Shown: piece by piece, positions 9,661 through 64,000 of the stretch | Numbering within the stretch: the stretch's first letter is position 1 | How the letters are laid out: every line of letters begins with the position of its first letter | Notes under the pieces: generated by a model | Seen by the model: the letters and a program-made list of their open reading frames with translations, nothing else | Told to the model about the DNA's origin: nothing | The model's database searches: none | Position numbers and translations under genes: made by a program | Source of the DNA: Sphyrna mokarran | Lineage: Eukaryota | Length of the DNA stretch: 64,000 bases | Assembly (NCBI GenBank): GCA_024679065.1 | Contig: JAGIQG010000001.1 | Location: 92,628,001 to 92,692,000 of the forward strand | Direction of reading: 5' to 3'

Positions 9661-10340
9661 TTTGATTTGATTTATTATCACATGTATTAACATACAGTGA
9701 AAAGTACTGGTTTCTTGCATACTATATAGACAAAACATACCACTCACAGAGAAGCAAATGGGAAAGTGCAGAATGTACTGGTACAGTCATAGCTAGAGTG
9801 AAGAGAAAGATCAATTTAATGCAAGATAAGTCTATTCAAAGGTCTGACAGCAGCAGGGAGGAACTTCTTCTTGAGTCAATTGGTATGTGATCTCAGATTT
9901 TTGCACTTTTTTCCCCAATGGAAGAAGGTGGAAGAGAGAATTTCTGGGGTGCGTGGGGTCCTTAATTATGCTGGCTGCTTTGCAGCGGGAAAGGTAGACA
10001 GATTCAATGGGTTGGGCTATATTCACGAACTTTTGGAGTTCCTATGGTCTTCAGCAGAGCAGGAGCTATACCAAGCCACAATACAACCAGAAAACATGTT
10101 TTCTATGGTGCATCTGTAAAAGTTGGTGAGAGTCAGAGCTGACACGCAAATTTCTTTTGGCTTCTGAAAAAGTAGAGGCATTGATGGGCTTTCTTAACTA
10201 TAGTGTGGGGACCAGGACAATTGTTGGTAATCTGGCCACCTAAAAACTTGAAGCTCTGACTCTTTCTACTTCATCCGTGTTGATACAAACAGGGGAATGT
10301 TCTCTTTACAATTCCTGAAGTCAATAACAATTCCCTTCAT
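9661..10340 (-). mobile_element. Rex1/Babar-type LINE 3' fragment
   Basis: KAASIIKDPTHPRNSLFHLLPLG C-terminal motif; 3' end ...cttttcactgtatgttaatacatgtgataataaatcaaatcaaa; splits the CR1 APE reading frame. Confidence 0.8.
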
Positions 10341-10504: not shown

Positions 10505-10690
10505 TATGACTGTCTGTGCTGATGTGTGCTATTGCAGACCAGAACACTGCATTTGCCTGACGAAGACACGGCAGAGTGTTGAAAGCTCGCAATTTTACTA
10601 TCAAATAAATCGGTTGGATTTAAAATTGGTGTTGCTAAATTCTTACTGAGTTCTTACTACCCCAGACCAACACCAGCATCTTTACATCAT
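10505..10690 (+). mobile_element. Penelope-like element pLTR/3' end with 13-bp TSD
   Basis: aaataaatcggttggatttaaaattggtgttg...ccccag..caacaccagcatctttacatcat; flanked by gggaaacaatgtc (10492-10504) and gggagacaatgtc (10691-10703). Confidence 0.8.
10551..10594 (+). ncRNA. Minimal type-I hammerhead ribozyme motif (PLE-associated)
   Basis: ttgc-CTGACGA-a-gacac(ggcaga)gtgtt-GAAA-gcTC-gcaa: intact CUGANGA and GAAA cores, stem II, palindromic AGCT stem III, stem I ttgc/gcaa. Confidence 0.7.
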
Positions 10691-11111
10691 GGGAGACAAT
10701 GTCCCAGAGTAATCAAGGACAGAATCTACTTGGTTAGTGTCAAGGAACAATAATGGTGCAATTGCATTGCTCAGTATATTGTGTAGGCCACTAACTAATG
10801 AGAAGGATGCAGAAGAACAAATTGCAAGAGAGCGGTGTAAAATTTATAGGGTAGTTCTAATGGGGAATTTTTAATTATCCAAACAAAAGCTGTGATAGTT
10901 GCATTGAAAGCCAGGAGTTCCTAGAATACATTCAGGAAAATTTTCAACTGCAATTTGCATCCAGTCCAATGAGAAAGGGGTTACAGTTGGACCTGCTTCT
11001 TGAGAATGAGGTGGGCCAAGGAAATCAAGTGTCAGTCAAGAACATTTGGGGGACAGTGATCATTACACCATAAAATTTCAGTTGACTACAAAAAAGGCTA
11101 CAGTGCAATGT

Positions 11112-11447
11112 TGAGAGGTATTGATTGAGTGGATAGCCAGAGGCTTTTTCCCAGGGCTGAAATGCTTGCCACAAGAGGACACAGGTTTAAGATGCTGGGG
11201 AGTAGGTACAAAAGAGATGTCAGAGGTAAGTTTTTCACTCAGAGAATGGTGAATGCGTGGAATGGGATACTGGCAACAGTGGTGGAGGCAGATTCGATAA
11301 GAGTCTTTTAAGAGACTTTTAGATAAGTACATGGAACTTAGTAAGATAGAGGGTTATAGGTAAGCCTAGTAATTTCTAAGATAGGGACATGTTCAGCACG
11401 ACTTTGTGGGCTGAAGAGCCTGTATTGTGCTGTAGTTTTTCTATATA
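11112..11447 (+). mobile_element. HER1/CR1 LINE 3' fragment (younger), nested in CR1
   Basis: DSQRLFPRAEMLATRGHRFK..FFTQRMVNAWNG motif; tail gggctgaagagcctgtattgtgctgtag. Confidence 0.85.
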
Positions 11448-13040: not shown

Positions 13041-14056
13041 TTATGCCCTCCTTACAGCATAATTTCCAACATTACTTTGTATTGTCTGTTACATTCTTCC
13101 TTTCTTCAAATTGTAACAATGATATACAAGAATTGATGAAACAATGATGTGTGTTTATTAATGAAAAAATAATGTGCATTCTTTATTTGAAGATAGGACT
13201 TTATGCAGAAAATGTTCACTGAGAGACTGCGGCATATATCTGATCTCAACCACTGGTACTTACAGATTGCCTACAAGTTATGGGATGAATATATTGTATC
13301 CTGTCAGGATATTGATTGACAGCAGTTTAAGATATATTCCCTTAATGGTGTGTGCCATCATATCAAAACATCCTGTTTTCTTTCCAAACAAACACTTATT
13401 CTTAAAGAATCAAACTATTTACATGAAACTAAAAGTTTGAATGTATTTTATGTCTGAATGTATTTTACCATAAGAGTAATACACCTATAAGGCTCTGAAT
13501 CGTATTGGTGTTTTTTTTAATGTGCCGCCTTAGTAATGGCTTTCTTTTGTGGAGACTGATGGACATTTTCAGAATGCTGGTTAGGGATGCTTTGTGTTGC
13601 ATATTAGACCATGTTTTTGTTATTTGGTGTTCCTGGTTATGGAACTATTGGTATCTGTTATATCACATTATCACTTCACTTGGTGTCCGCACATGATATT
13701 TTCCTGGAATTCCAGGTGCTGAAATGCTTAGGCAACTGAAGATGTGACTAACATTGGTGGAGCAGTTAAAACTAGGGATGTTTACAAAACCAGAATTGGG
13801 GGATTTGATTTTGATTTATTATTGTCACACGTATTATCATACAGTGAAAAGTATTGTTTCTTGCACGATACACAGACAAAAGATACCATTCATAGAGAGG
13901 GAAACGAGAGTGCAGAATGTAGTGTTACAGTCATAGCTAGCGTGTAGAGAAAGATCAACTTAATGCAAGGTAAATCCATTCAAAAGTCTAACAGCAGCAG
14001 GGAAAAAGCTGTTCTTGAGTCAATTGGTATGTGACCTCAGACTTCTGTATTTTCTT

Positions 14057-14514
14057 CAAAGAACAAAGAACAAAGAACAAAACAGCATGGGAAACAGACC
14101 CTTCAGCCCAACGAGCCCGCGCTGCCACCCCGATGTTCCCACCTCTACCTGCGATCCCTGTCCATGTTTATAGATCTATGGATTAAAAAGCAAATTTTAG
14201 ACAATTTAGGGAGAAATTGTTTTGCCAATTAGCCTAAGAGCACATCTTTGGGATGTGGGAAGAAACTGGAGCGCCCAGAGAAAACCCACGCAAGCCCGGG
14301 GAGAATGCGCAAACTCCCACAGACACAGGCCCAAATCCATGTATCTGCACAGCATAGCGATAGTCACTGAGCTGTCGTGTTGCCCATCAAATGGTCCAGG
14401 TCAAGCGTACACTAACGACGTGAAGCACTAGGATACTCTCAAAAAAGATCCAAGAGCAGCCCTCTCATGACCCATCACGTGTATGCCCCTCGTTAGACAA
14501 CAAGGTGGACCAAA
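14057..14514 (-). mobile_element. Composite V-domain SINE with atypical structured 5' module, copy A
   Basis: Minus strand order: ~120-nt novel head, diverged HE1 head (gggcaacacgacagctcagtgactatcgct), V-domain (gtctgtgggagtttgcgcattctccccgggcttgcgtggg), HER1-like tail, (gttcttt)3; colinear with 63450-63900 (11 mismatches in one 80-nt block counted). Confidence 0.85.
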
Positions 14515-15525
14515 TTGAACTTAGAGCAATTGAACTTACAGCAAATTGAACTTAGCTGTAAGGTGGTATACATGATTAATCAAGCAAAGTTAAAATCTAA
14601 TGTCATCCATCCATTAATAGCTCAACAAATAAAGTCCCAGGTGTGGTTGCTGATCTCAACTAGGGCAACAATGTGCAAGTGATCTCAGCATCACTGGAGA
14701 AGAACAAAAAGAGGTGAAAGATTTGTGGAGGAAAATCCAGTACGCTTTGTGTCTGTTATCAATGTGGTGACAACTCTGTCAAAGTGGATGCCTTGACAAC
14801 AAGATCAGATTGGTAGCAATTCTAAATAAACTTACAAGTGGAGAAGCCATTTGTATATCATAGACACAGCGCTTTAGCATAAGTTACTTCAGAAAAAAAG
14901 GGACAAGAGAAGAAAACTGGATAAAAATTAATATATTTGGAGCACTAATTTTGAAAAGATTAGGATATAGATTGCATCACCTTGAAAGGACTTCTTTGTT
15001 TAAGTGTGGACGGTCCTCACCTTGCATGTTTAAAGAATTCAACGTGTGCATCGTGGTCTTCGGCATTTCAGAATGATCTCCCTGGTTGGGCAGCAGGGGC
15101 ACCAGATGCCTTTGTCTTCTTCCCAAAGGAAGAAAATGGAAGAGAGAATGTCTGAGATGTGTGGGGTCCTTGATTATGCTGGCTGCCTTATCAAGGCAGC
15201 GGGAAGTATGGACAGGGTTAATGGATGGGAGGCTGGTCTGCATGATGGATTGGACTACATTCATTTTGTAGATTCTTGTGGTTTCGGACAGTGCAGGAGC
15301 TACACCAAGCTGTGATACAACCAGAAAGAATGCTTTCAATGGTGCATCTGTAAAAGTTGGTGAGAATCGTGGCTGACATGCCAAATTTCCTTAGGCTTCT
15401 GAGAATGTTGGTAGGCTTTCTTAACTATAGTGTCGGCAATAGTGGGACCAAGACAGGTTGTTGATTATCTGGACACTTAAAAACATGAAGCTCTTGACCC
15501 TTCCTACTTTGTCCTCATTGATGTA

Positions 15526-15720
15526 CCAATTTTAAATCCAACCAATTTATTTCATACTAAATCTGCGAGCTTTCGACTTTTGTCTTCGCCAGGCAAATAG
15601 GTATTTGCCTCTTGAAAGCTCGCAGATTTACTATCAAATAAATCGGTTGGATTTAAAATTGGTGTTGCCAAATTCTTACTGAGTTTACCCCAGTCCAACG
15701 CCGGCATCTTTACATCATGA
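15526..15720. mobile_element. Penelope pLTR insertion with head-to-head inverted duplication and 12-bp TSD
   Basis: 15526-15599 is the reverse complement of 15602-15662 apart from a core deletion in the right arm; TSD ctcattgatgta at 15514-15525 and 15721-15732. Confidence 0.85.
15561..15598 (-). ncRNA. Minimal hammerhead ribozyme motif with one core substitution
   Basis: atttgc-CTGGCGA-a-gac(aaaa)gtc-GAAA-gcTC-gcagat; 6-bp stem I, core CUGA changed to CUGG. Confidence 0.55.
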
Positions 15721-25932: not shown

Positions 25933-26140
25933 TTCCTTCTTAACAAAATAATGAGGAAAAAAAACATTGTACTAGTCAATCTTTCATGCTGTAGTACTGT
26001 AGGAATCAAGACAAGGTGTAGTCTTCATGCGACACTGCTATGGAAAACATGTGATAATTGTTCCAGAGTGCACAATTGTAACAGAGACCAATCGTCTAAT
26101 TAGGACAATTTAAAGTCCTAAACTCTATGTTTACTGCTAA

Positions 26141-27082
26141 TGTGCAAAATTCTCCCCAAAAAATTCTAATGTGGAACTTACATGAAAACTGTAGTAATTC
26201 ACGCTGTTTCTTTTCAATGGGAGCTTAAACAAGAATCTCCCATTGCACTGTAGAAGCCACCACATGAATATCATTATAAATCAGTAGATGGGACATATTC
26301 CTGCCCGGGAGGCTGAAAGCAGCAGGCCACTGTTCGATTGCTGGCTAGCTCAATCACTGGCCAACCTGGGACTCCCACACCGCTTTCCCCTCCCATCTCC
26401 TTCATGGTCCTCCAGATCATGAACCTCCCCAACCATTCCTGGGCCAGCCTGACACCATTCGCCCCTCCCCTCACCTCTACCCCCGCAAGCAGCCCCACCC
26501 GCCTGCCTGACTGCCTCCCCAGCTAAACCCACCCAATCAGTGGCCTCCCTCTTGCCCCCACCGAATCCAATGCAGGCACTTCTAAGCTTTACCCTACCCC
26601 ACTGGTTGCCATTACACCCTGCCCCATCAAGCACTGCCCCTAAGTCCCATCCTTACCAGGCCACGTCCCCTAGACACTGCTACTTGTCCAATAAGCAGAG
26701 TCAAGGTGCTCCCGGGGAGTAATAGGAAGGCACAGGCTGGCACTGCCAGGATTCCCATGCCTTTGGGGCATCACACCCCTACTGCCCAACTACCTAGAGG
26801 ACACTAATTGCCTCCCATTCACTCCGCGGGGCCAGGCTGCTAGCATCTCCAAAGTGAAGAGCTACTCTAAATCCTGCTGGAGTTTGTTGGGAGGGAGAGG
26901 GTAGTGGCCCACAGAATTCAGGCCCACTAATAGCATTTAAATGATATTTAAAATATCATATAAATACTGGCCTAGCCTCCCCACCAATGAAGACCACGCT
27001 GGGAGACGCAAGCAGGGTACAAACTCCTGCGCAAATCCCACGTGATTCTCTCAGCCCACTGCACTATGGGAGAATCGCAACC
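26141..27082. mobile_element. Non-autonomous DNA transposon/MITE (Harbinger-like termini) with C-rich interior
   Basis: Imperfect TIRs gtgcaaaattctccc / gggagaatcgcaac; taa on the left flank; similar degraded elements at ~27320-27990, 43660-44290, 48290-48690, 51640-51930 and 54965-55560. Confidence 0.5.
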
Positions 27083-28789
27083 AATATAACAGCCTATAAG
27101 TTGAAAAAAATAACACTTATGTCAATGATCCTTGGGATGTCCCACTCTAGTACAATCCAGGTCAATATTTTAATTATTAATGATTACATGACAAGGTATA
27201 AAACAATGTGGGGTGGAAAGCAAAGTTGGTTGGGAATGTGAACAATTACCTGGAGAAAAATGTTGAGGAACTGGGAAATGCTAAACTGAGGGATGGAATC
27301 TTATTAGTTACATAGAAATAGCCATGGAGAGTGGGGAATTTTGTGAGGTGCCCAGTGGGTAATCTACCTCTTCCCAACTGCAAGCAGTTTTGCTGAAGGC
27401 AGGGTCTAACTGTCACCAGCCACCTTCCCAGGAGCAACAAGTGTCAATTATGGTAATTAAGTACCAACATCGGGGCAACAACACCAGGATTGTCCTGATG
27501 ATTGATATGAGTCCTCTGCTGTGGTCGAAGCTCAATAGAGACTGGAGGTGGCCTTACAAGGACAGCCTAATGAGCCCGCATGGTCTAATTTAATTCTATA
27601 CCCTCTTTATCCCCATGGAACCACAGGACTCAGAGTGCCCCAGCTGCTGATGGAGACCAGCTTGTGAAGTGGTTCCTGCTCTACAATGATTGCCTGCCAA
27701 CTATGAGCACATTTTATTTTTAAAACTAAGTCTTCAGAGGCAGCCTCCATGTTGAAGCACCTTCTTAGACCCTCAGCTACAGTGGCCTTCTCTCCCCATG
27801 GTGCTGCCAGATATCCACAGTCTCAACCACTCTATTTAGATTTCATGACTGCATCTTGATCACCACTTTTAATTGGGCAAGGTCCCAGAGGCAACCCACT
27901 TTAGGAAAAATCATGCAGGCAAGCGGCTTGCAGACACCAGTTTCAGGCTCCAGAAATGATCCCAGCCTGTGTTTAAAAGTTATGTTGGTAACATTCAGGT
28001 CCAAGTATTAACCTGCTGACAGTGTCTGATGTGTAATTACTGTGGACAATCTGGCAATTGTATTTCCATTTTCATAGCAGTATTCACAATGGTAAAAGTT
28101 AATATGAAATGTAAAAATATGACAAGAAAATGATAGTTTTGCAGTTAGGAAATATGGTACACAAATTTTTGTGATATAACATGTATAAATAAGGAACACT
28201 TTTTAGTCATCAACATTACCTTTTGACCTAAACCATTAGTGGTTAAATTAAGGATGTCGTTGCTTTGGTCTCTTGGCTTGTATATTGCTATTAGTGTCAG
28301 TACACTTGCTCCTGTTGCCCTTTTAATGTTTCCTCGGCATCTACTATAGTATGTATAGTCGAAAAATTGCTTTGTGATCACAGAGCATGCATACAGCAAA
28401 CATTTTCACTTTCCTGTAATTAAGTCAGCATGGTGTTTGACTTTCTCACTCCTCAATGCTAGTAACATTTGATTCTGAGGATCTACTTTCACTATTTCCT
28501 CTCAAATACTGGTATTTTTTTCTCGCCACAATTTTTATCATCTCCACGTGTGCCCTAAAGAACAATGTACTAATCTGGCTTGAGAGGCATTTAATATGGC
28601 AGGCCTTTCCAAAGGCAGTACAGGGTTCTTGTCAGATTTCCTGCTGGCAGCCAAAACTCCCACTGTCTGGATAAAATACCATCCTTTTCACTGAGACAAC
28701 AAAAACAGTCCTTGTTCAGTGATACTTGCAATGGATTCTTCTGTTGCCTCGATGGATAAAGAAAGTTCACACTCCAGACTAATGTTAGC

Positions 28790-30474: not shown

Positions 30475-32378
30475 CAGAACTTGCTGCTGCTCCCCTAGAC
30501 AACTCTTCTAGTAAAGTTATAGCTCTGGCAAAAGCCTAACAATGTGAAAAATTGCCCAAGGTATGTCCTGCACGCACAAAGGCAAATCCAACCCAGCCAA
30601 ATATAATCCAGTCTATTCTCGATCATCAGTGAAGTGATGGAAAGATCATCAACACTGCCATCAAGCAGCCCCTGCTCAACAATAACCTGCTTGGTGACAC
30701 CCAGTTTGTGTTTCCCAAGGTCACTTGCCTCCTGACCTCATTACAGCCTTGATTCAAACGTGGGTGAGAGAGTTGAATTTCAGAGGTGAGGACAGAGTGA
30801 CAGCCCTTGACATCAAGGCCGTATTCAACCAAGTGTGGCATCAAAGTGCCCTAGAAAAATTGGAATCAATAGATTTTGGGCCAAGTTCTCTGCTGGCTAG
30901 AGAAATACCTGATACATAGGAAAATGGTTGTTGGAGGGTCAGTTATTTCAGCTCCAGGAAATCTTTGCAGGAATCCCTCAGGGTAGTTTCTTAAGCCCAA
31001 CTATCTTCAGCTGCTCCATCAATGACCTTCCCTCCATCGTAAAGTCAGGCAGGGGGAAATTTGCTGATGATTGCACAATATTCAGTACTATTATGACTCC
31101 TCAGATACTGAAACAGTCCATCTTCAAATGCAACAAGATCTGGACAATTCCCAGGCTTATACTGACAAGTGGCAAGCAACATTCACACCATATAAATGCT
31201 AAGCAATAATCATCTCTAATAGGAGACACTCTAACCACCGCCCCTTGACATTCAATGGTGTTATCGTCACTGAATTCCCCACAGTCAACATCCTTGGGGT
31301 TACTATTGACCAAAAACTCAACTGGACTCACCACATAAACAGCGTGGCTGCAAGAGCAGGTCAGCAGCTACGAATACTATGATGAGTAACTTACCTCCTG
31401 AGTCCCTAAAGCCCTTCCACAAGGCACAAGTCAGGAATGTGACGGAACACTCCCCATTGGCCTACAGCTCCAACAACACTCTAGAAGTTTGGATAAAGCT
31501 CCAACAACACTCTAGAAGTTTGACACTATCCAGGACAAAGCAGTCACTTTATTGGCTCCACATCTACAAACATCTAGTCCCTCCACCATCAACGTTCAGT
31601 AGTAGCACTGCATTTAGAAGATGCTCTGCAGCAATTCACCAAAGATTCTTAGACAGCAGCTTCCAAATACACAAACACTTCCATCTAGAAAGATGGAGAT
31701 TGAGGGGACACCTGATAAAAGTATGCAAGATTATGACAGGCATGGACAGAAGCTTTTCCCCAAGGTGGAAGAGTCAATTACTAGGGGGCATAGGTTTAAC
31801 GTATAAAAGGCAAGTTTTAAAAGAGATGTACAAGGCAGATTTTTTACACAAAGAGTGGTGGGTGCCTGGAAAGAGCAGGGGGAGGTAGTGGAAGCGGATA
31901 TGGTAGTGGCTTTTAAGGGGCGTCTTGACAAGTACATGAATGAGATGGGATTTGAGGGATCTGGTCCCCAGAAGCGTAAGAGGTTTTAGTTAAGTCAGGC
32001 AGCATGGTCAATGCAGGCTTGGAAGGCCAAAGGACCTATTCCTGTGCTTGAATCTTCTTTGTTCATTATACCACACTCTGTGCAAAAAAGTTGCTCCTCA
32101 GGTTCCCATTCTTTCCCCTCTGAACTTAAACCTATGCCCTTTAATTCTCGATTCCCCAACCCTGGGGAAAAGAACCAAGAACGCTTGGAAATATATCGCC
32201 ATTCCTTCACAGTGACTGGGTCAAAATCCTGGAATTCCCTCCCCAGTGGCATTGTGGGTCAACCCACAGCATATGGACTGCAGCAATTCAAGAAGGCAGC
32301 TCACCACCATTTTCTCAAGCAACTGAGGATGGGGAGTAAATGCTGGCCAGCGATGCCCACGCCCCATGAATGAATATA
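30475..32378 (+). mobile_element. CR1/L2-group LINE 3' half (RT to tail), interrupted at ~31692-32180; an older copy of the same family lies at 30150-30468
   Basis: ALDIKAVFNQVWHQSALEKL, GIPQGSFLSPTIFSCSINDLP..KFADD, KAQVRNVTEHSPLA; tail aagaaggcagctcaccacc...gatgcccac...gaatgaata. Confidence 0.85.
31692..32066 (+). mobile_element. HER1/CR1 3' fragment nested in LINE
   Basis: RLRGHLIKVCKIMTGMDR, FPKVEESITRGHRF; tail ggccaaaggacctattcctgtgcttgaatcttctttgttc. Confidence 0.8.
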
Positions 32379-42344: not shown

Positions 42345-42584
42345 TGGTTTTAGGACAGATGTCAGAGGTAGGTTCTTTACCCAGAGGGTGGTAAGGGTAT
42401 GGAATGCCTTGCCTGTGTCAGTTGTAGATGCACCAAGTTTGGTAGCGTTTAAGAGGTTAGTAGATAAGTTTATGGATGAAAGGGGAATGGTTTAGGTTAG
42501 AGGGTCACTGCTTGTTCCTAATTGGTCGGCGCAACATCGAAGGCCGAAGGGCCTGTTCTGCGCTGTAATGTTCTATGTTCTATG
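42345..42584 (+). mobile_element. HER1/CR1 3' end inserted in a Penelope-type remnant
   Basis: FFTQRVVRVWNALP; tail ggccgaagggcctgttctgcgctgtaatgttctatgttctatg; host sequence ctctgatg|..|atgtttccagacctgctga. Confidence 0.85.
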
Positions 42585-45500
42585 ATGTTTCCAGACCTGC
42601 TGATTATTTCTAGTATTTTCTGTTTTTTTTTATTTCTTTAGGGTTAATAATGGGATTCAATTCCACCTTCAATGCTAGGGCTGTAATCAGGCAGAGCAGA
42701 TGTAACATCCATTTTAGAATCATCCTGACTTTCATGCCAGGTGAAGATCAGGTGAGTTCTACAACAGCCAGCTGATCCTCTCCACTGGATTGCTGCTGGG
42801 CAGAGAAAGTGAAAATGTACCCCAGTGAGCTGAGAGGAATAAATGGATAATAATCCCAATCGACTTTTAAAACAGGAAAGTATCTGAATTGTTGCAGTGT
42901 CTAGAGATCAAGTCCTCTTTTGTAAAATGTAAGTCTCCAATGACATAGCATAGTTTGTTTTCCTATTGTAATACCTGTACATTGTACTCATTTTTTTCTC
43001 ACTTTAGAGCAACATGACATTTTTATTTCCCACATCAGCCATACATGTGACGGTACTGAATAGAATTGCCAATTTAAGGCCAATTATTAATGAGTTATGA
43101 GCGCTTTCATGTCGTGGAGTGGTGCCTTCAAGTTTGTGAGTCATAAGACCTTGGCAATGGGCACAGCCAGAAATTTTCAGCCATAGGAAAGCTGAGTGAA
43201 TTAAAGTTCATTGGTTGACATGGTCACATTTCAGAGATACTGACCTGCTTACTGCCTTTGAAAGCAAAACAATCTCAGGGTGCAGAACCGCCTTCACTGC
43301 TACTCCCTGTTATTTGTAAAAGAAAATACTCAAATCTTGAATTACATCACCGGCAACTTTAATATCATTACTAGCAAAAATATTATTTTTAAATTTACAA
43401 TAAATTCAAATTTGGATTAGTATCACATTTTAACTGTTCTCAGTCTACGAGCAGTGGTGATTGCAAACCACTAGCAAGGCTCAACAAGGGTACAGGTCAG
43501 TTAAGCCAATACATTATTTCAACTTCCTTGTTCATTGCCACAACAATATCAGATGTAAACTGTTCTTATTGTTGTCTCTACCCAACATTTTTCTTTAAAT
43601 CTCTCTAAATACATTTACAATTACAAAGCAATTGTCCACCTTGCTACAAAGACAGGGAATTAAATTTAAGGCCCTCCCCTGTTACAAGTTTGTTGACAAG
43701 GAACATTTAATTGTGTGGGAGGGTGGTAGGTGGGAGCCTTCCACTTTAATCTAGTTAAGCCCATGATGAGAAGGAAGAATGAATTAGTGCCCAGCAGCAG
43801 GAGATGGGCTCACCATGTGGGAACTACAACAAGCAAACCTCTTCAAGATTATTTGCTAGGGGAAGGGGTTATTGATTGGATATCTGTCCTAGCATCAGAA
43901 AACGGGTGATGCTCAGAGCCACATGCTAAGAACCACACCTGCCCTTGCTGTTGATCCCAACCCTCATCTTCCCTGTGATCTCCCTTTCTCACCATCACTC
44001 CCTTGTTGTTTGGGATGCACCAGTGATCACAGGCATTAGGTGGGTATCCTTATGGCAGCAGCCATAAGTGCTGCTCCCTGGTGCTGCTGCTGTTCAGTAG
44101 ACTGCTGACCTCTGACTGACTAGCAGCTCTTGGCAGGGAAGACTTCCAACCCGGGCTCTTTGTTACTGTCCAGTTAAGTACCTGAATAGCACTTAATGAA
44201 GTGGGCTATCCCTAATAAAGGTGAAATAAGGCATTCACCAGCTATCCAGTCAGCAGGCAAGACCCTCATTGCTTCCATTAAATATGGTACAGGATTCAGC
44301 CATTTATTGGACATTTGCTTTACAATATTTTCCTATTTCACTTATTTTTTTCGATTTGTGCATAATTACAATAAGTACAACAAAACACCACTTCACAATA
44401 CTGAAAACATCAGAATTGCAGAACTAAATATTGAACAATACAATGCTGAAGAGTTTTAAAGAAAAACAGACAACAACGTACATAAATTTGCCAAACTGAT
44501 AACAACTGTTTCTTAGGCTTTCCCAGTGAAAAGGAGCAGTAGCCCTGGGGTAAAAATGATAAGGCGTTGAACTTTATAAATGAGGGGGAAATATCCTAGT
44601 GGAGGCCATGTCATCCCTATACACATGTTTTTAGGCTCCGATCTTGATTGGATTCACAAAACCATCACGTTTATTCCTTTCTGGGATAATTCCACTCTTC
44701 TAACATCCTTCAGCACTGATTCATTCTCCTCTTTGGCAGCAAGACTGGATCACTTTAGGATGGAGGCAAGGGGTCTGGTGGAGTTCTGTCTGCTCCACAT
44801 GAAACAGAAAAATCCTATCCTTAGCTTGGTATTGTTTTGAACTTTGGGACCTGTCAAAAGGATGATAATTGTCTTTTTTGAGCCTAAATATTTCTGAGTT
44901 CCTATGAAGTTATTCAAATAAAGATAGCAATGTGGAAATATGCATTGGTAATGCCCGAAGCGCCAAATTTAAACAGTTCTGATGCGTGCAACTGGTATGT
45001 ACCCACACTGAAAAACCAATTAGACATTGTTAGGGATACAGTAGCATAGACAAGGAAACTGCATCTTAAAATTACTGTATCATTTTCTGTAAGGATATTT
45101 AGTGCCTTTGCATCAAATTCTTCTGTGTGATACCTTAACGGCGATACAAAGGCATCTATTATGTACAGGTTAATGGCAGTATTAAAATTGTGAAGCGAAG
45201 TCTATTATGAATGTCATGAACTGCAAACAATGAAATAGCTCATGAAGAAAATTGTCAGAACTTTTTTGCCTGGAATTAAACAATACTTGCAGTAGACCAT
45301 AACTCAGAATTTCAATTATGAAACAATCCTTCAAGAATTGAAAATATTTAATCTTCGTTGCAATATCAGGGTCACTGGACAATATACTGTAGCATCTAGT
45401 CAGGACAGGTACTCTGCAACTTACTACAAATAGCAATTAAAAAATAGAATTGCAAATGAGAGCACTTGCTCCAATCTATACAGAGGATAGTTGTCTAAAG

Positions 45501-50297: not shown

Positions 50298-50768
50298 CGA
50301 GTGCAGAAGAGATTTACTAGGACGCTATCAGAACTTGTTGGCTTGAGTTATAAGGAGACGCTGAATAAACTGGAACTTCTTTCTTTCTCAAGCAGGTCTT
50401 ATGCAGGTCTATACAATAAACCGGGGCATAGATCAGCAAGATGATCAATATCTTTTCATTAAGGTAGGGGAGTCTAAAACTAGAGGCATAGGTTTAAGCT
50501 ATAGGGGAGATATATAAAAGTGTCCATAGGGCCAATTTTTTCATACATAGGGTGGTGAATGTCTGAAACAAGCTGCCAGAGGTAGTAGTAGAGGTGGATA
50601 CAATTTTGTCTTTTAAAAAGCATTTAGATTGTTGCATGGGTAAGATGAGTATAGTGATATGGACCAAATGCGGCAACTAGGAGTAGCTTAGGGATTTAAA
50701 AAAAAGGGCGACATGGACAAGTTGGGCCGAAGGGCCTGTTTCTATGTTGTAAACATCTATGACTCTAA
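50298..50768 (+). mobile_element. HER1/CR1 3' fragment
   Basis: RVQKRFTRTLSELVGLSYKETL; tail gggccgaagggcctgtttctatgttgtaaacatctatgactcta. Confidence 0.85.
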
Positions 50769-52089
50769 GTAAAGCCCTAATATAAAGAGCTATTCTATCT
50801 CTTGGTTTGACAAAAGGGAAGCTGACTGTATATGCCTTTCACTTTGCTACAGTCTGTTTCGATACAGTCTAGAGAAAAAAAATAAGCAGCTATTCTAGGC
50901 AAGTAGTTGGTGCTTTGGGGATTGGAATTAATCTTGTTGCTTATGATAGTCTCCTGCTATGTGACACTGCTGTGTTCAGCCTGCCAAGTACCATAATAAT
51001 CAACACTATTGTCGATCAGTTCACTTACAATCAGAGAGAAACTGATGAAATTACAGAAGGGTTAACAGGAGTACCCATTTCAGAGCTATAACATGGCATC
51101 TCGAACACGGGTCAATTTCAGTACATTCTAATTCATTAGCAAAGTGATTGGCATTCAAGCTTTCATTTACTAATATGCTAATTTGCCACTTGTTTTAGTC
51201 TCCCACGCATGACTAACTGATGGGAAAAAGTCACTTGAAGGCAGGACTTAGTAAGCATGTTTCGATGTTATAATGTCCTTTTTAACCAAACACAGCTTAT
51301 ACTTAACAGATATTACAATTGAGTATGTTTTATCAAGCTTTTTTTTGCACAGCGGCCTCACTGCTGTAGACAGCAGATTAAACATTAAATAATTTCAAAT
51401 TAGTACAACCTGTCCCATTTTGAAACAAAAAACTGTGATAAAATTACATTACATAAAATTACATAATAGCAGCTATGGGCTGTTATTTTCAGAATGTTTA
51501 CTTTTAAGTCCAAGCATAGTTAGGTGCAACTTAAACAATGAGTTATGGTTATATTGTACTATGTTCTTACAAATACAAATAAAATTCATTAAAAATATAA
51601 GATTCCAGTCAGTAATGTGGACCTTCACTCCCTGTCAAGTCAAGGAGTGGATCCAGGGCCAAAAGACCCAGAGAACTAAGTTTTTTAAATATAGTTTTCA
51701 AATCTCGCTGTGCTCCAGGAAGAAGAATGTCTCTTTTAGCAAATATTAGGTCTCCACTGCATTCCTCTCTCTCTCTCTCTCCATCAAGCATAATTACCAT
51801 CGGATTCTACCCTCCTGCTACCAACATAATCAGGAGCTGCCAGGGTTCTGAGACGTAACAGCCTGCTCAATTCTCCAAGCCCACCGCCATCTTGCCCACT
51901 CCAGCAGGCTTCACAAAATAGAGCCCAATGTTTTAATAAGCTAATAATGCCCCTTCTGAGGTGAATATGCTTTCTCCTTATTATTGATTAACTTATTCAC
52001 TCAAATGCCAAGCATCCACTCATACTGGCGCAATGTGCTAGTTACAACGAAGATAATGAATCTCTCAGAAACACAGTACAAGTAAAACA

Positions 52090-54019: not shown

Positions 54020-54532
54020 TCCTCGTATGGCGGGACAATGTATGAGGAGAGTTTTAGTAGGTTAGGATTATTTTTGCTGGAATTCAGAAGAATTGTGGGG
54101 TGGGAGGGGCGGGGGAGGAGGAGGGAGGGAGGGAGAGAAGAAGGCTGTCTCATAGACACTTATAAAATTCTAACCGAACTGGACAGAGTAGATGCAAAGA
54201 GGATGTTCCCGATGATGGGTAAGTGCAGAACCAGGGGTTACAGTCTGAGGATTCAGTATAGACCATTTAGGACATAAGTGAGGAGACATTTCTTCACCTA
54301 AAGAATGGTGAGCCTGTGGAATTCATTAACACAGGAAGTAGCTGATGCCAAAACATTGAATGTATTCAGGAGGCAGATAGAATATAACACTTAGGGTGAA
54401 TGGGATCAAAGGTTGTGGGAAAAAAGCAGGATTACACTACTGAGTTGAATGATCTGCCACGATGGTAATGAATGGTGGAGGAGGCTTGAAGGGCCAAATG
54501 GCCTTCTCCTGCTCCTATTTTCTATGTTTCTA
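54020..54532 (+). mobile_element. CR1 LINE 3' fragment
   Basis: YEESFSRLGLFLLEFRR..LIDTYKILTELDRVDAKRMFP..RTRGYSLRI; tail gggccaaatggccttctcctgctcctattttctatg. Confidence 0.85.
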
Positions 54533-57499
54533 CATTCATTTGCTTAAAATATTATGGCTAAAATTATGTCACACAAATGAAATAGGTCAAAAATGAGCAA
54601 ATAAAGGTGGTGATTGGATTACAATGTGGAGTTCACAACTGAGGTTTACTATGATTAACAAATTGAAAGATAAGTGAGAATGATGGAAATGGAGATGAGA
54701 GAAAGGAGAGGAGAGAGGATCTCAACTAGGAGAAAAAGGCAGAAAGGCATAAACTTGGAAAAAGAATCTGGAGATAAATAAGAATCAGTAAAAGAGTCAC
54801 ATTAACTGTTGTAAACAAAACTTGAGATCAAAATTAACAGTAAGGAAATGAAACAGAAATGAGTTGAAGCCCTGAGTTAATAGAGAAGCAATTCACCAGA
54901 GTTAGCAGTTCATAAGGAAACCAGTTCATGGACAGGCCAGGCCTCAGAAAAGCACACCTGTGAGGGGCAATTTTACAGTGGAATGGATGAGGGTGAAGCT
55001 GCACGTCTCCCCCAAAGCACTCACCAACTGAAGCCTTTAACTGGCCCTATAATGACCGTTTATGGACCATTTCCACCACAGCCTCAAATTTCAGGTTGCC
55101 GAAGGACTTCATGGGGTGGGAGAGCCCAGAAGTGAACTTGCTTAGACCCCAGGCAATAAACGGAGGATGCTTCCATCATCAGCCTCCTTTTAACACTGTC
55201 ATATCCCATACCCCAAAGAGACTGCCAACTGCAGGTGCTTCCTCTCCCCACTCCCCCCCCCTCAACACCCCCCCACCCCCGGTCTCTACTAACACCCTTA
55301 TCCCACTTTACCCACACTTCCAGAGCCCACCTCCCCTCTCTATCCAGCCTCCAAAACTTACCTGGTTCTGGACTCCAGAACTTAGTCTCTATGGATTGTT
55401 CAGATCGAATCCTGTCCTCTGCAGCTTTTGAAGCTGGTGATGCTGGACAACACCCAGCCAGTCAAATTAGCCAAATTCACCAGGGTCAAAAACTCAGTTT
55501 GAGTTTAATCCGACCCAATTTAGGTTGATCCAGCAGTTTTCACGGGCATGTGAGAATCATCCTAGCAACAAGCTATCAAAGTCAATAAATAAAGCTTTCA
55601 TTTTTAGTTTTTAACTAAATTATACACTTTCAATTTAGAATTTTTGCAGAGAAATAATTAACAGTTCTTCATTTGGTACTAAATGCTTTGTTTTCCCAAG
55701 TTTGTACCATGATACATACCAAGGTTCAAATGTACTGCGACCAAGCTGTAATTTCAACTGCATGTTGAAATTACTACAAAATAGTGTTGATGATGACACT
55801 TTCAATGCATTAAACCTGTTGGAACCTTTTACTGTATTTATAATAATCTATCAGCCAACACCATAGTGATTTCAGCATAATTAGATTTGCTGTCATAGCT
55901 GTCCCAAAAAGACACTTCAAATACAAATAAATTAGCTTCAGTCTGAAGTAAGGATGCTCTGAGAATATAACATTATTTGAGAGCTCAGTTCTTATCAGCT
56001 TGCAAAATCACTGATCATTACTTTAACAATTTCTACCTCAAAATATCACAAATGATGTCTGGACAACAGTAAAGCAACAAACAAGAAGTCTCAATTGCTT
56101 TGCCACATTCAGAGCAGAGTTTAGCAATTAAATTCTGACATATAAAGGGTCTTACGAATAGATACTACAAGCTTTGTTACCTCTACATTATAAACTATAG
56201 ATATAATTCATGAAAATACAACTTGAACAATATTGTACGTAGATTTATTTCTCTCTGCTTTATGCATAAGTCAAAGAGGTCAACCAAGAGATGAAGAAGA
56301 TAATAATCAAGAGTACAAACTCAATAATACAAAAGCTTCAAACAATATGAGTCACTCAAATATAAAGAACAGAATATAGTGAAACTATTTGGCATAAGTG
56401 AATTCATTACTTTTTAAGTAACTGCACTCCCTGCAAAAATAATGATGACTTTGGTGAATAAATGCGAACGTCCAACATGCTCATGTCTAGTATAATGGTA
56501 ATGGAGAAGGGTTTTTCTCTCTCTCACATTCCATTATTAAAGATGACTTATTTTTATTATCTACCAGTGCTGTTTTTCAACTGTCCCAGGAAGTAATCTG
56601 AAAAATGAAACATAGCCATCTAGTTTATACTTCCCCAATTATACAAATCTGCATCGTGACATGATCATCATCTTACCATTCATCAAACCAGCACCTGAAG
56701 GATTTTATAAATAGCACTGAAAGTTCACAATTCTGGATAATGGTATTGCAACAGGTTAATTTTTTTTTTCTGTTTTTTCCATATTTTTCAGTACCTCACA
56801 GTAATAAATGTGAACATTCTTAAAATTATTGAGAATCAGAGATCTGTACCCAAACTGTTGCTCCTTTGGCAATACAATGTGCATAATCTGGATTCGGGTA
56901 GAGGACTTGCATGTTAATTTTTTTCTACTGTGGATTAATGTTTTGAAAAATTCTAATCTCTTTGCCATTTACCTCTGTACTATTCTATTTCTTTCATAAT
57001 TTATTTCACGACTTCCATGTACTTGTTCACTATTTTTAATAATTGTTAAACTGTAATGATGACAGAAAAAAATTTAATACCAGTGCACTAAATAAAGAGG
57101 AAACCAACCACACAAGTATAATTGTATAAGATTATGTAACTGGTCAAAGAGTGTTTTTTTTCCTCTGTATTTCCAGCGTATTGGCCTATTGAATACCTGT
57201 TTTGTACAACTTTATAGTACATGTACATTAAAATAATAAATTCAGCTAATATTACTGGATTTGCTACATAAATTCTCTGTTTCCATTGTCCGTTGTGCTG
57301 TTTGCTTAAGTAATAAAATAGGGCACCCAAACTTTCCATTAGCAGTGAGGAAGACATTCTTCACCGAATATCTTTCTTCCTGTCCCATAGTTTGGCTATT
57401 GCCACTTTATCTGTGGCCATTTGCCCATCAGAGGAACCTCCTGCTGTCCAAGTCTTCACTGCCCACATTAGCAAGCTATTTTCTAAATTCCTACTGAAC

Positions 57500-63449: not shown

Positions 63450-63900
63450 AAAGAACAAAGAATAAAACAGCACGGGAAACAGGACCTTCGGCCCAACGAT
63501 CCCGCGCCATCACCCCGATGTTCCCACTTCTACCCGTGATCCCTGTCTATGTTTATAGATCTATGGATTAAAAACAAAATTTGAGACAAGTTAAGGAGAA
63601 TTTGTTTTGCCAATTAGCCTAAGAGTACATCTTTGGGGTGTGGGAGGAAACCAGAGCACCCGGAGAAAACCCACGCAAGCACGGGGAGAATGCGCAAACT
63701 CCCACAGACACAGGCCCAAATCCATGTATCTGCACAGCACAGCGATAGTCACTGAGCTGTCATGTTCCGCATCAAATGATCCACGTCAAGTGTACACTAA
63801 CGACGTGAAGCACAGGGATACTCTTGAAAAAAAACCCAAGAGTAGCCCTCTCACGACCCATTGCGTGTATGCCCCTTGTTAGACAACAAGGTGGGCCAAA
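63450..63900 (-). mobile_element. Composite V-domain SINE with atypical structured 5' module, copy B
   Basis: Colinear over its full length with 14057-14514; inserted immediately after EYCVPV of the RTEX element. Confidence 0.85.
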
Positions 63901-64000
63901 ACACCTGTAGGATAAAAACAAATACATCAATATCATCATCTATTTACACACTTCCCAGGGACTCCCAAGGCTCATGATCCCTATTTTAAATCAGTTTTCT

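Follow-up and report, generated by a model that had tools for sequence, protein, structure and literature searches.

Two related elements lie on the minus strand of a 64,000-nt stretch of the Sphyrna mokarran genome (the window), at 14065-14514 (copy A, with its tail repeat running to 14057) and 63450-63900 (copy B). Both are likely, in our view, to be 3′ fragments of a shark or ray CR1 LINE whose 3′ UTR captured a V-SINE. The family continues upstream of the point at which the copies seemed to start, its tRNA-derived segment has lost the B box, T runs occur inside it, and it ends in a CR1-type tail. In its source the unit would be linked to a CR1 ORF2, may have arisen by a template switch, and might serve some function. 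The element is probably a LINE-SINE chimera rather than a SINE with a new head, and the first-pass annotation of the window, which had proposed such a head, misread its boundary.

Two colinear copies in the window

Copies A and B are colinear, with 89.8% identity over 451 nt (E 5e-175) and 33 transitions and 12 transversions between them. By part, the identity was 0.89 in the head, 0.94 in the tRNA remnant, 0.91 in the V region, 0.90 in the spacer and 0.88 in the tail (Table 1). The first-pass annotation was therefore right in describing two colinear minus-strand copies with this order of modules. Its statement that ordinary HE1 copies lack the head module also agreed with our comparison. The V region matched six ordinary HE1-like copies within the window, and the head module gave no further significant match in these 64 kb. 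The names HE1, HER1 and V-domain are presumptive here; the HE1 and V-domain comparisons were made with the copies in the window.

Table 1. Parts of the two element copies, with their positions in the window and the basis of each assignment.
Feature	Positions	Strand	Basis
Copy A head	14392..14514	-	Starts 4 nt downstream of the acceptor-like junction (5′ cut point of copy A)
Copy A tRNA-derived V-SINE head remnant, B box deleted	14328..14385	-	Alignment, box scan, shuffles
Copy A V-domain (presumed name)	14236..14327	-	Similarity to HE1-like copies in the window
Copy A spacer	14151..14235	-	Unlike CR1 tails
Copy A CR1-type 3′ tail, ending in 7-nt repeat	14057..14150	-	Score against CR1 3′ ends
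Copy B upstream continuation, leaving the window; candidate CR1 ORF2 end inside	63901..64000	-	Depth, bridging contigs
Splice-acceptor-like motif (copy B)	63904..63924	-	Sequence
Copy B head, 122-nt module	63777..63898	-	Predicted fold; no homology to HE1-like heads
Copy B tRNA-derived V-SINE head remnant, B box deleted	63713..63770	-	Alignment, profile score, box scan
Copy B V-domain (presumed name)	63620..63712	-	Similarity to HE1-like copies in the window
Copy B spacer and CR1-type tail	63450..63619	-	Sequence comparison

The presence of only two copies in the window might suggest a segmental duplication or a two-copy accident. However, the flanks of copies A and B bear no relation to each other, and the DNA upstream of A is unrelated to that upstream of B (143 of 500 shuffles reached the score). 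The extended shared flanks that had been named as the mark of a duplication are thus absent. Moreover, tens of thousands of variant contigs were present in three runs of three organisms, as expected of the multi-copy family that had been proposed. A duplication has practically no chance of being the explanation.

The family continues upstream of the module

The two copies had been said to start at the same point. This is where the pairwise alignment of A and B ends, but in public sequencing runs X1 and X2 the element extends at least 100 nt further upstream. Parts of copy B were present in 20 of the 23 public runs listed. Contigs of X1, X2 and X8 were mapped on 63725-64000, an interval that takes in the module, its adjoining tRNA remnant and the 100 nt that had been regarded as flank, but not the V-domain, spacer or tail. 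The contigs numbered 33,306 in X1, 3,823 in X2 and 1,677 in X8, and their summed depth is not a copy number. The median depth of the upstream part relative to the head was 0.82 in X1 and 1.19 in X2, with no step where the element had been said to start. X8 contained almost none of the upstream part (depth ratio 0.0007). The other 17 runs with copy B (shares of 0.16-0.32 in 16 of them and 0.39 in X3, which is possibly RNA) lie outside this evidence. X21 (organism K) gave 0 reads, from about 6% of that run only.

Among the 8 pieces listed per run, the claimed start was bridged by 4 in X1, 2 in X2 and 1 in X8. These counts are minima, with 38,795 further pieces outside them. The bridging pieces had at least 31 letters on either side of the point and 15-25 letters unlike copy B, so they come from other copies. 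The join between upstream sequence and module is clearly a family trait. Since the family extends above the shared start, that point is the cut point of copy A, and copy B runs out of the window. Abundant, dispersed and variably 5′-truncated copies, a CR1-like feature, were found: A is shorter than B and variant contigs are many, although only two copies were seen whole.

The loose ends of X8 had a different pyrimidine tract ahead of the same junction. Because a diverged tract precedes that junction, divergence is likelier than a family starting at the module as the cause of the upstream loss in X8. Separately, 41 X1 contigs had loose ends at 63891, with the module behind a different acceptor-like upstream sequence. 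They suggest a second subfamily in organism A.

The module is predicted to fold but has no B box

The module spans 63898-63777 in copy B and 14512-14392 in copy A. The majority-letter head was predicted to form one closed domain of 122 nt with 47 pairs and -48.9 kcal/mol (z -4.7; 0 of 300 shuffles folded as well). The predicted domain consists of a 7-bp closing stem, a 7-bp hairpin and a long, irregular stem that ends in a T-run loop. A good fold (z -3.6) was predicted for the opposite strand as well. The predicted pairs are kept at 45 positions in A and 43 in B, and copy A has the X1 majority letter at all 11 places where copy B departs from it.

The variant table has 40 rows, of which 22 entered the analysis of the module and 12 more the profile test; the remaining 6 lie outside the module. 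Against 57% expected for transitions, 10 of 11 X1 minor letters at paired places kept the pair (P about 0.02). Compensatory changes on both sides of a pair were absent. The majority letter of X8 at 63898 would disrupt the outermost pair. The variants support the predicted helices weakly, because the changes are one-sided, the structure was derived from the same majority letters, and the X8 letter breaks a pair.

The first-pass annotation had placed a structured module unlike HE1 in front of the V-SINE remnant, and both the fold and the comparison with HE1-like heads, which found no likeness by score or by profile, agree with this. It had also taken the module for the 5′ head of a composite SINE, possibly a rebuilt tRNA loosely like tRNA-Pro or another structured RNA. 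A free-standing SINE headed by such a Pol III RNA would account for a module that folds well, for an A/B alignment that stops there and for the fall in X8 depth at the module start. Yet the family goes on upstream in X1 and X2, which contradicts this reading for organisms A and B. In addition, the box scan found no B box in the module and a run of 6-8 T, and the predicted fold contained no cloverleaf. Four or more T in a row terminate transcription by Pol III. The T run inside the module therefore makes a Pol III head unlikely, and we give the free-standing SINE very little credence.

ARAGORN found 0 genes. At the gathering threshold Rfam matched nothing in the window, and with E relaxed to 10 it still matched nothing on either head. 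We attach little weight to these negatives, since an ordinary HE1-like copy with an intact tRNA-derived head, run as a control, likewise gave no tRNA match. HDV-like, hammerhead and twister ribozymes, Y RNA, vault RNA and 5S RNA were set aside, as no such topology could be recognised by eye and there was no match in Rfam. Exact motif scans of viral, metagenome and prokaryote genome contigs also gave 0.

A V-SINE remnant without its B box is followed by a CR1-type tail

Downstream of the module lies the tRNA remnant. It aligns colinearly with the heads of ordinary HE1-like copies, but its score is marginal. The profile score was reached by 35 (A) and 41 (B) of 1000 shuffles, and the pairwise score of A by 9 of 500. 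A perfect B box was present in 4 of the 6 ordinary HE1-like copies, and a fifth had one with a single mismatch. In the two copies of the element, the closest B-box match had 3 mismatches, since about 18-22 nt are missing across that place in the alignment. The description of this part as a diverged HE1 head lacking the B box thus holds. The element does not have the tRNA-derived Pol III promoter of the V-SINE HE1, with its A and B boxes. Nor does it start, as HE1 does, at the tRNA-derived head, which is preceded by the 122-nt module and by a further 100 nt or more.

The V-domain of copy A matched five of the six HE1-like copies at 76-83% identity (E 7e-9 or less) and the sixth at 69% (E 0.007); that of copy B matched all six in the window at 75-80%. 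The HE1-like copies themselves are located at 20.2, 22.9, 25.3, 32.7, 40.8 and 49.2 kb and have at least 2-3 different 3′ halves.

The spacer of copy A was not like five CR1 tails (160 of 500 shuffles reached the score). The tail, compared with five CR1 3′ ends in the window, scored 170 against a null of 75 +/- 7, and 0 of 500 shuffles reached this score. The last 85 nt are clearly of CR1 type, and the tail is also homologous to the read-through tail of a CR1 protein. It ends in a 7-nt repeat (3.6 copies in A). As in CR1-type 3′ ends, a conserved tail is followed by a short tandem repeat, with no poly(A). T runs of 5-8 occur inside the element.

Ordinary truncated CR1 ORF2 ends were seen on the plus strand at 11108-11382, 31717-32070, 42349-42590, 50298-50770 and 54041-54545. 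Most of them have short tails and no module; the tail at 32.0 kb ends much like that of the element.

An acceptor-like motif and a candidate ORF2 end lie upstream of the module

Directly upstream of the module in copy B, a pyrimidine tract is followed by CTACAG (63910-63905) and then GT, which resembles a splice acceptor. Similar motifs with other pyrimidine tracts were present in loose ends of 41 contigs of X1 and 35 contigs of X8. The chance frequency of such acceptor-like sites was 18 in 128 kb.

Copy B leaves the window 100 nt upstream of the module, with no ORF2 seen attached there. A frame in this part ends with TAG at 63942-63940, 35 nt ahead of the acceptor-like motif, and might be the end of a CR1 ORF2. 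Its G-I-x-x-x-G spacing and its distance to the stop are as in CR1 ORF2 ends. The 60 nt in the window ranked 322 of 7174 stop-anchored 19-mers (top 4.5%, best of 4 candidates), which is not significant. Pfam found 0 families on 5 peptides, and this was uninformative, as the true CR1 ends among them also gave 0. Right behind the candidate stop, an ATG opens a 55-codon frame (63939-63775, minus strand) that covers the full module in copy B. In copy A this frame is shifted at the T run; it is probably due to chance. In protein searches, neither this frame nor the candidate ORF2 end had a relative, and two matches were rejected as unrelated repetitive proteins.

A longer non-autonomous element, either an internally deleted CR1 or a composite SINE with a promoter more than 100 nt upstream, could use CR1 enzymes through the tail. 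It would fit the upstream continuation, the CR1 tail and the absence of a visible ORF, and internally deleted CR1 derivatives do exist, according to PMC6740152. However, the internal T5-T8 runs speak against a Pol III transcript, and the weak match just upstream may be a CR1-like ORF end. We consider such an element unlikely.

Proposed origin and related systems

For the preferred CR1 LINE with a captured V-SINE, the following course may be proposed. An ancestral CR1 master would have acquired the V-SINE. The simplest route would be a reverse transcriptase that started on V-SINE RNA and switched to LINE RNA, because V-SINE RNA shares the CR1 tail. The unit would now be transcribed by Pol II from the LINE promoter and copied in cis by target-primed reverse transcription. 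Truncation at the 5′ end is usual for CR1. Most copies would thus be 5′-truncated, with copy A stopping at the foot of the module and copy B being longer. Within the UTR, the module and V-domain would be retained as structured RNA rather than for promoter activity. More tentatively, the autonomous CR1 might have domesticated its own parasite: a promoter-dead V-SINE, behind a conserved acceptor-like motif and a folded 122-nt domain, might be kept as a functional cis-element that is conserved between species more than the sequence just upstream. We regard this extension of the model as rather doubtful.

The original paper on HE1 and HER1 is reportedly that of Ogiwara in 2002. The HE1 V-SINE of sharks and rays and its partner, the CR1-type LINE HER1, appear as a pair in a table of PMC3747384 and in PMC4824008. 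Like HE1, the element has a V-domain, a tRNA-derived segment ahead of it and a CR1-type tail. Unlike HE1, it has a deleted B box, an internal tRNA segment with at least 220 nt of other family sequence upstream, internal T runs and a distinct spacer.

Ingi-3_AC and MER6 may serve as precedents in kind. Ingi-3_AC, as described in an extract of PMC5786205, is a LINE with a Ceph-SINE-like sequence in its 5′ UTR, possibly acquired by recombination. The present element would likewise be a LINE carrying a conserved SINE-body-like sequence in an untranslated region, but it has this sequence at the 3′ end, with a V-domain, a tRNA remnant and a CR1-type tail. MER6 is a mammalian MITE with a V-domain from a fish V-SINE, according to part of PMC6887750. 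In both cases another mobile element would carry the V-domain along as it spreads. MER6, however, belongs to the DNA transposons and has terminal inverted repeats, whereas the present element ends in a LINE tail and probably moves via RNA. The literature searched, which did not extend to subscription papers or Repbase Reports, described neither the module motifs nor any CR1 whose 3′ UTR contains a V-SINE. The supplement of PMC13343379 holds consensus sequences including those of elasmobranch species (Table 1 therein) and may bear on novelty.

For the conservation of SINE bodies such as the V-domain over hundreds of millions of years, PMC5499810 lists three models, as yet untested. Should a LINE carry the V-domain with no Pol III promoter of its own, a standard retrotransposition assay could be run on an autonomous element from which the domain has been removed. 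Such a deletion would separate a role at the RNA level from a role as promoter or in partner recognition. If the domestication model is true, an element that copies itself would offer a test of the unexplained V-domain. In annotation, truncated copies of a LINE with a V-domain would be mistaken for a new SINE family, as in this case.

The insertion site of copy A

Copy A and 602 nt of unrelated DNA 5′ of it (14515..15116, minus strand) are located within a LINE piece that we take to be Rex1-like. This piece is split into 13804-14057 and 15122-15522, and an undivided relative lies at 9661-10284. The same 6 nt stand at both breaks (15122-15117 and 14057-14052), as a target duplication. The arrangement looks like one insertion that joined truncated copy A to foreign DNA. 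The join shows microhomology over 4 nt and, at 14511-14555, 2.9 copies of a 15-nt unit, features that would be typical of truncation repair.

This site also bears on whether the module behaves like an exon. Host or LINE RNAs might splice into the acceptor-like site, and the short spliced RNA might then be retroposed, so that copies would begin at the module. The motif was present in three sequence variants, and copy A begins 4 nt from the junction, with foreign DNA 5′ of it inside one target duplication, as this would predict. On the other hand, the start of copy A is not exactly at the junction, its microhomology and triplicated 15-nt unit suggest truncation repair, and depth did not drop upstream in X1 or X2. 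Retroposition of a spliced form therefore appears improbable, and 5′ truncation of a CR1 LINE remains our preferred account of copy A.

The 602-nt piece looks single-copy. Its first ~100 nt are richer in G+C, with a donor-like AAG|GTGAG marking their end near 15020, which would suit a captured exon-intron part of another gene. Beside both Rex1-like pieces, 10551-10691 and 15525-15719 share a sequence of ~110-190 nt with a long inverted repeat, which is MITE-like. Elsewhere in the window, G+C reached up to 0.48 at 26000-28000, possibly a CpG island or gene start.
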